Below are positions 49,147 to 50,213 of a stretch of DNA of 64,000 nucleotides, piece after piece. Source of the stretch: a phage; sequence record OZ335963.1; one strand, given 5' to 3'. The notes beneath the pieces were generated by a model that saw only the letters and a program-made list of their open reading frames with translations, made no database searches and was not told where the DNA came from. The position numbers were made by a program, and so were the translations under genes. Position 1 is the stretch's first letter, and each line of letters starts with the position of its first letter.

Positions 49147-50007
49147 TTACACCGCCATCTTTCCTTTAATTGGCGGGTGAGATACATAGTTGTTAAGAAC
49201 AAAATTATGCGGCTTTGCGAATTGACTCAACCAAAATACCTGCGATTCTGTGTCCCATTCATCAAATTCATCTGGAAATTTTAATTGTAATTCGCATAAA
49301 TCCATAGGTTCACGACGCAAAATTTCTTTACATTGTTCTACGTGATTCATATAGATATGAGTATTACCACCAGAAAATATCAAATCTCCTGGAATAAGAT
49401 TACACATCTTAGCTACAATATGAACTAACGTAGCATATGATGCAATATTAAATGGAAGACCGAGGAAAACATCTACCGAACGTTGATACCACTGCAGATC
49501 CAAATAGCCATTACGCACATTAAACTGATAGAACATATGACAAGGTGGTAATGCCATTTGCTTAAGTTCTGCCGGATTCCATGCTGAAACAATTTGACGT
49601 CTATCATTTGGCAGTTTTTTAATACGTTCAACAACTTCTATAATTTGGTCTACGCCACCAAAATCGCGCCACTGTTTTCCATAAATTGGACCAAGTTCAC
49701 CGCTATGGTATCCTAAATCTTTTGCTTGTTTTTCGTAATTTTCATCCCAGACTGTTTTGCCTTGAATTAATGAATCATGTTGAATTAATCGCAAATCATT
49801 GACATTTGTGCTTCCCGATAAAAACCATATTAGCTCAGCAATGCAAGCTTTCCAGGCAAGCTTCTTAGTCGTTACTGCAGGAAAACCTTTAGTTAAATCC
49901 CAGCGTAATTTAGTACCGAACAAAGCAATTGTTCCTGTGCCTGTTCGGTCATCGGTTTCATAACCATTTTCAAAAATGTCTTTAATTAAATCCTGGTATT
50001 GTTTCAT
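49147..50007 (-). CDS. td: Thymidylate synthase, uninterrupted (no intron)
   Basis: 286 aa from ATG 50007 ([26 protein letters not shown]...); contiguous through active-site region PPCHMFYQFNV...DVFLGLPFNIASYA. Confidence 0.93.
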   Translation of the reverse strand: MKQYQDLIKDIFENGYETDDRTGTGTIALFGTKLRWDLTKGFPAVTTKKLAWKACIAELIWFLSGSTNVNDLRLIQHDSLIQGKTVWDENYEKQAKDLGYHSGELGPIYGKQWRDFGGVDQIIEVVERIKKLPNDRRQIVSAWNPAELKQMALPPCHMFYQFNVRNGYLDLQWYQRSVDVFLGLPFNIASYATLVHIVAKMCNLIPGDLIFSGGNTHIYMNHVEQCKEILRREPMDLCELQLKFPDEFDEWDTESQVFWLSQFAKPHNFVLNNYVSHPPIKGKMAV

Positions 50008-50213
50008 TAGTTCATCCAAGAATATGTAGAAGGATATTTGGCAAAGTTAGGCTTATATCCTAATTTAACCATTTGTTTTGCTTTGCGAGTAAATCCTAAA
50101 GAACGCTCACCTTTAAGATATTGTTTTGGTGTCATAGGCCCTTGATGCATCTGCCGACAAATAAAAAGGGCCATAGCATTAGGAACATCCTTAACTTTTA
50201 ATTTATTGCTCAT
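50007..50213 (-). CDS. Hypothetical 68-aa protein between frd and td
   Basis: ATG overlaps frd stop (ATGA) and its stop overlaps td ATG. Confidence 0.4.

Follow-up and report, generated by a model that had tools for sequence, protein, structure and literature searches.

A variable slot between frd and td of T4-like phages and its uncharacterised small gene ORF68

In phage T4 (NC_000866), the dihydrofolate reductase gene frd (145109-145690) and the thymidylate synthase gene td (joined, 143235-145112) overlap directly by 4 nucleotides (nt), and td carries the I-TevI group I intron, with 1017 nt between its two exons. Homing into td has been described (PMC2988022). Modular shuffling is likewise known from hyperplastic regions of T4-type genomes, where the modules are flanked by PeSLs, which consist of sigma-70-like promoters and terminator stem-loops (Arbiol et al. 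2010, PMC2839356). Here we analysed 64,000 nt of the Tequatrovirus phage record OZ335963.1 (hereafter the window), in which frd and td lie on the minus strand and are separated by a 68-codon open reading frame (ORF), ORF68. An earlier reading made from the letters alone (the sequence-only reading) had described an ORF whose start overlaps the frd stop (ATGA) and whose stop overlaps the td start (TAATG), and had set it against the direct overlap and the split td of T4; the coordinates and junctions found here are as it described them (Table 1), and the T4 record agrees as well. We put the probability at about 0.8 that ORF68 is a genuine accessory gene of T4-like phages, catalogued as phrog_9550 yet uncharacterised, which sits in a variable slot between frd and td. 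The variable slot, rather than ORF68 itself, is the true feature of the locus, and both the presence of ORF68 and the intron-less td are ordinary phage gene-content variation.

When the window was aligned with T4, the two junctions differed by a single clean 206-nt indel with AATGA on either side (at 50214-50210 and at 50008-50004), which leaves the block ends ambiguous by 5 nt. The frd 3′ context in front of the td ATG in T4 is the one in front of the ORF68 ATG in the window. The two phages share this frd 3′ end with its ATGA, and in both td lies further along the same operon; in the window, however, the ATGA start belongs to ORF68 and td begins one gene later, behind TAATG, while the group I intron of T4 td is absent.

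Conservation of ORF68

Comparison with PHROG profiles assigned ORF68 to phrog_9550 over its entire length, and tblastn found a match in 238 phage records. Among these, 135 showed at least 90% identity (Tequatrovirus and Dhakavirus, at 95-100% and mostly annotated as "hypothetical protein"), about 30 showed 60-90% identity (T4-like phages of Klebsiella, Enterobacter and Serratia), and 72 fell below 60% (Phapecoctavirus and others), the homologs remaining full-length down to about 30% identity. The records of ECp13, Marfa, CIP9 and Serratia phage 4S list a coding sequence here under the name hypothetical protein; pSs-1 and the BASEL phage Paracelsus are further carriers of ORF68. The GenBank entries WWE96681.1 (ECp13) and YP_009850431.1 (Klebsiella phage Marfa) represent the same protein at the same position between frd and td. 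ORF68 is 100% identical in ECp13 and many other tequatroviruses, so that nothing sets it apart from this family, to which no function is assigned. ORF68 is therefore already known, as a catalogued and annotated family, and is not a new element. The search with the 68-amino-acid (aa) product that the sequence-only reading had proposed thus led to a small-protein family and to no homing endonuclease. The family is small and occurs in phages only. Among 5.8 billion proteins it forms 40 clusters, and a set of 1.84 billion holds 11 representatives; none of these clusters or representatives bears a functional name, being unnamed or called "hypothetical" or "uncharacterized protein". Among the papers searched, nothing relevant was found on the frd-td slot or on either of the PHROG identifiers discussed here.

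The pairwise ratio of nonsynonymous to synonymous substitution rates (dN/dS) of ORF68 is 0.12-0.28, and the gene is protein-coding and under purifying selection. The six N-terminal residues MSNKLK are invariant in 16 of 16 closer homologs, and R20, M48, G52 and P55 are invariant across a 31-sequence family alignment, which favours the first ATG as the genuine initiation codon. The idea that the frame is a chance ORF in a non-coding spacer could draw on its weak Shine-Dalgarno signal, on its lack of annotation in JS98 and JS10 and on its mis-started annotation in IME339, but it is refuted by these invariant residues, by full-length homologs at such low identity and by a dN/dS far below 1, as well as by the confident structure model described below, and its chance of being right is practically nil.

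Annotation of the gene is uneven among the records. JS98 (NC_010105; L007 2505-2706) and JS10 hold a 98.5% identical copy that is left unannotated; IME339 and Klebsiella phage EI have the gene annotated from an internal start as a 42-aa protein; and a few records name it "flagellar biosynthesis protein" or "DUF4858", neither of which is supported by Pfam. In addition, the IMG/VR contig 2938479101_000007 (L057 7490-7694) holds a copy between an frd and a td that are each 97% identical to those of the window. This copy is frameshifted at a homopolymer (CCAAAAAAAATATC compared with CCAAAACAATATC in the window), and represents either a pseudogene or a sequencing error.

The slot between frd and td

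To describe the junction in relatives, an 801-nt query spanning it was used, which matched 548 records, and an evenly spaced sample of 60 was examined. ORF68 was present in 15 of the 60 (about 25%), a different insert of about 416 nt with a 115-aa ORF in 39 (about 65%), and the junction was empty in only two records, both of them T4. The alternative ORF, found in T2, FL33 and Bas43, is phrog_1928, a family present in 581 records from many T4-like genera and located between frd and td wherever its context was examined or frd and td were annotated at the match. Both genes occur together in Marfa, CIP9 and Serratia phage 4S, in the order frd, phrog_1928 (one or two copies), ORF68, td. These data show that the slot has at least three alleles in close relatives, namely ORF68 alone, the phrog_1928 ORF alone (including T2) and nothing (T4), and that the direct frd/td overlap of T4 is a minority state. 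T4 is atypical at this junction, lacking both optional genes and carrying the intron, and comparisons with T4 alone overstate novelty; the apparent novelty of ORF68 stems from T4 as the sole comparator.

The junction comparison across T4-like genomes, which the sequence-only reading had suggested, found ORF68 conserved in close relatives and absent from the reference T4. The rarity that this reading had implied for an occupied junction did not hold, and its picture of a small gene inserted in-line with coupling preserved survives in part: the overlapping gene is there, while "inserted" is not secured. Given that at least five T4-like lineages have ORF68 right in front of td, the more distant copies in T4-like phages of Klebsiella, Enterobacter and Serratia included, the T4 junction may equally be explained by loss of ORF68. 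Most simply, the T4-like group has had both slot genes for a long time, and tequatroviruses keep one, the other or neither.

The T2-type slot gene (RB32ORF229c in RB14) resembles ORF68 in its position, in being optional and in having no assigned function, whereas its sequence is unrelated and, in T2, spacers of 20 and 45 nt set it apart from frd and td in place of stop/start overlaps. By eye, the T2 spacer between this 115-aa ORF and td (L011 1776-1820) contains TTGATT...TATAAT, which resembles a sigma-70 promoter, and an AAGG ahead of the td start codon; td in T2-type phages thus seems, judged from these motifs, to have its own putative promoter and ribosome site in place of coupling. Annotators of BASEL phages called the phrog_1928 ORF (L011 1428-1772; L013 1430-1777) a "putative homing endonuclease", and elsewhere it goes by "putative glucose-1-phosphate adenylyltransferase" or "putative dihydrofolate reductase". 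None of these names is backed by a Pfam or PDB match.

We also compared the window with JS98, a Dhakavirus. Nucleotide identity was 98.5% for ORF68, 87.6% for frd and 74.4% for td, and the proportion of synonymous differences was 0.05 for ORF68, 0.47 for the last 67 codons of frd and 0.81 for the first 100 codons of td. Purifying selection cannot account for such near-identity at silent sites, so that the 206-bp unit must have passed recently between Tequatrovirus and Dhakavirus. IMG/VR was also scanned with exact patterns of three junction types; most hits were chance matches in AT-rich sequence, 13 of 43 being real frd/td loci after tblastn, and these scans serve qualitatively rather than as frequencies. 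Among the contigs, a 170.5-kb Dhakavirus-like one (L041) has a direct frd/td overlap without ORF68, and its comparison with contig L055 and JS98 gives the same 206-column indel in flanks that are 92-98% identical. The 206-bp presence/absence polymorphism, with identical boundaries, therefore exists in both Tequatrovirus and Dhakavirus. When phages co-infect a cell, homologous recombination at the conserved 3′ end of frd and 5′ end of td probably swaps the unit; alternatively, ORF68 might be lost recurrently or occasionally through the AATGA microhomology.

Gain, loss or exchange of a single small non-essential ORF as a module recalls the PeSL-mediated shuffling of T4-type genomes. Unlike PeSL modules, ORF68 is bounded by start/stop overlaps, and neither a promoter-like nor a terminator-like site was detected on the minus strand from 50426 to 49032, between frd and nrdA.2.

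The sequence-only reading had also offered ORF68 as a remnant of a mobile element, and one can picture a recent, lineage-specific insertion of a homing endonuclease or other mobile element into an ancestral T4-like frd/td overlap. The clean 206-nt indel with AATGA at each end, the near-identity of ORF68 in two genera whose flanks have diverged, the status of td as a homing target (PMC2988022) and the endonuclease label of the alternative slot ORF in BASEL records all fit this picture. ORF68, however, has no Pfam, PDB or fold likeness to any endonuclease, and its family is full-length and conserved, so we regard such an origin as very improbable.

Junctions, product and possible role of ORF68

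Since the stop/start overlaps chain the three genes together and no promoter or terminator was found between them, frd, ORF68 and td are most likely, as far as sequence features can tell, co-transcribed and co-translated as one unit with the early nucleotide-metabolism genes. Both overlaps are present here and conserved in relatives, the TAATG type also occurring in Marfa, CIP9, 4S and JS98, and their functional coupling is putative. A GGATGA near the 3′ end of ORF68 may act as a Shine-Dalgarno-like element for td, brought by the cassette itself, and TGGATG is kept at this position in Marfa, 4S, CIP9 and JS98. ORF68 would then use the frd 3′ context on which td relies in T4, while td would use the GGA element supplied by ORF68.

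The predicted protein, of 7.8 kDa, has an isoelectric point of 10.26, with 13 K+R against 2 D+E residues and a net charge near +11. The AlphaFold2 model, built on the 31-sequence alignment, has a predicted local distance difference test score (pLDDT) of 84.7 and helices at residues 13-24, 29-39 and 43-49. Searches with ORF68 against Pfam, PADLOC and a PDB sequence profile, together with a fold comparison, gave no match, and other members of the family gave scattered, weak and unrelated matches in Pfam. Two database-wide homology searches and an exhaustive hidden Markov model search yielded no function, and 22 family members hit none of the known anti-phage-defence families in PADLOC-DB at E values up to 1. 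Neither profile nor fold comparison revealed a GIY-YIG, HNH, LAGLIDADG or NUMOD/IENR motif of homing endonucleases, no significant structural match to a three-helix helix-turn-helix regulator was obtained, and the window contains no paralog. Outside the T4-like phages, in Phapecoctavirus and five metagenomic large-phage contigs, the homologs are surrounded by small genes, most of which lack annotation; neither td nor frd occurs in the vicinity, and no neighbour recurs.

Because the protein is small, strongly basic and helical, bears no enzymatic motif and has homologs in arrays of small early genes, we tentatively suggest, at slightly less than even odds, that it is an early protein which the phage can do without, that its ligand is a nucleic acid or an acidic target in the host, and that it is unrelated to thymidylate chemistry. 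It is unlikely that ORF68 adopts a fold absent from the PDB and confers a selectable advantage, for example by neutralising host defence or by modulating Td or the deoxynucleoside triphosphate (dNTP) synthesis complex; if this were true, it would explain the recent spread of a near-identical 206-bp cassette across Tequatrovirus and Dhakavirus despite flanks that differ by 20-25%.

Several observations weigh against our reading of ORF68 as an accessory gene in a variable slot. A 9-nt repeat, TAAATGAAA, which takes in the first two codons of td, stands on either side of the T2-type allele; such a repeat is the expected trace of insertion into an empty junction, and a T4-like empty junction could thus have come first. 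The nearest GGA lies 12 nt 5′ of the ORF68 ATG, so translation of ORF68 would depend on the putative coupling. Finally, all Straboviridae genomes that were examined have ORF68 next to td on its 5′ side and overlapping it, and this invariable adjacency within the T4-like phages leaves a little room for a td-related role. ORF68 might accordingly serve specifically as a partner of thymidylate synthase, or of the enzyme complex that makes dNTPs in T4, or as a regulator of either; or its translation might set the level of td translation. The overlapping arrangement recurs in Tequatrovirus, Dhakavirus, Marfavirus, Kanagawavirus and Serratia phage 4S, and ORF68 is conserved to a degree comparable to or above that of frd in the same pairs. 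On the other hand, td is functional without ORF68 in T4, T2 and about three quarters of tequatroviruses, the homologs of Phapecoctavirus and the five metagenomic contigs are found away from td and frd, Bas43 has the same td C-terminal allele as the window and no ORF68, and inherited synteny can account for the adjacency. A dedicated role of this kind is accordingly, in our view, rather improbable, and the regulator of the folate/thymidylate pair proposed by the sequence-only reading found no positive support, given the distant homologs and a td allele common to phages with and without ORF68.

We attach little significance to the locus beyond housekeeping. Even so, a 206-bp single-gene presence/absence polymorphism between two essential-pathway genes, with natural near-isogenic pairs, is a compact and tractable case, possibly of use for work on translational coupling, on recombinational exchange of small phage ORFs and on the function of one "hypothetical" early protein.

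The td gene and the surrounding genes

The td of the window is a continuous 286-codon frame colinear with the spliced td of T4, as the sequence-only reading had stated; thymidylate synthase is matched over the full length of PF00303, and an Rfam scan of the whole 64-kb window returned no family, hence no group I intron. A T4-type intron, with the I-TevI ORF after nt 549, is absent, and the homing-site region is uninterrupted. When td was searched for in phage records, 749 matching places were found in 584 records, which corresponds to about 165 records with a split gene, and at least 379 of the 584 hold at least 80% of td uninterrupted. The breaks sampled fall at td nt 543-549, the T4 insertion site. 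The intron-less td is thus the majority state and a common allele, not the rarity that had been implied, and this is consistent with the patchy intron distribution long known among T-even phages (references in PMC2988022).

A region resembling the I-TevI homing site (window 49439-49490, minus strand) is identical to the T4 spliced exon junction at 45 of 52 positions, with the insertion point at 49459|49458, and it retains the CAACG cleavage motif. The window td may therefore still be a cleavable homing target for I-TevI. Co-conversion around td during I-TevI homing (PMC2988022) offers a further parallel: the I-TevI cleavage position is about 520-730 nt downstream of ORF68, and phages carrying both the intron and ORF68 exist (YUEEL01, EC121 and fPS-90), which makes it conceivable that ORF68 hitch-hikes on homing. 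The differences are that ORF68 is not an endonuclease, that the window has no intron and that no association between ORF68 and the intron was seen.

Three further records, OQ992558 (L14), KY608967 (HP3) and MW883059 (SYGD1) (hits H240-H242), have a 703-nt td match spread in two pieces over 1023 nt. At about 320 nt, their insert falls well short of the T4 intron of about 1 kb, and it may be an intron without an endonuclease ORF.

The C-terminal segment of Td is replaced relative to T4 and T2 (about aa 236-268; td nt about 700-830; window 49178-49308, minus strand), being acidic in the window (MDLCELQLKFPDEFDEWDTESQVFWLSQFAKPHN) and basic in T4 and T2 (KELCELVISGLPYKFRYLSTKEQLKYVLKLRPKD). In the core of this segment, 17 of 60 nt are identical, compared with 53-59 of 60 over td nt 1-660, and in many relatives the match to the window td ends at nt 657-725. 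The window-type C-terminus resembles that of distant genera, and the T4/T2 type looks like the odd one out. A pairing of the basic ORF68 with this acidic td allele was considered and rejected, because Bas43 combines the same allele with phrog_1928 in its slot.

The 1751-nt frd-td stretch of the window is 98.7% identical to that of Escherichia phage ECp13 and matches 609 phage records. The minus-strand order is gene 32, five small ORFs, frd, ORF68, td, nrdA.2, nrdA.1 and nrdA.

Table 1 Coordinates of features at the frd-td locus of the window
Feature	Position	Strand	Basis or remark
gene 32	52492-53400	minus	
111-aa DUF7247 protein	51048-51383	minus	absent from T4
81-aa ORF, stop overlaps frd start	50794-51039	minus	absent from T4, present in T2
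frd, dihydrofolate reductase, 194 aa	50210-50794	minus	PF00186, E 1.6e-18; phrog_316; 87% aa identity to T4 Frd
206-nt presence/absence block relative to T4	50009-50214	minus	window/T4 alignment
ATGA overlap, frd stop TGA and ORF68 start ATG, termination-reinitiation context	50210-50213	minus	sequence
ORF68, 68-aa basic helical protein	50007-50213	minus	phrog_9550, E 1.3e-45, residues 1-68 on profile 1-68/68
GGATGA in ORF68 3′ end, Shine-Dalgarno-like candidate	50012-50017	minus	sequence only; GGA 7 nt 5′ of td ATG
TAATG overlap, ORF68 stop TAA and td start ATG	50005-50009	minus	sequence
td, thymidylate synthase, 286 aa, intron-free	49147-50007	minus	PF00303, matched 1-266/266, E 1e-94

The interval between gene 32 and frd holds five ORFs in the window and three in T4, which indicates that the whole interval is mosaic.
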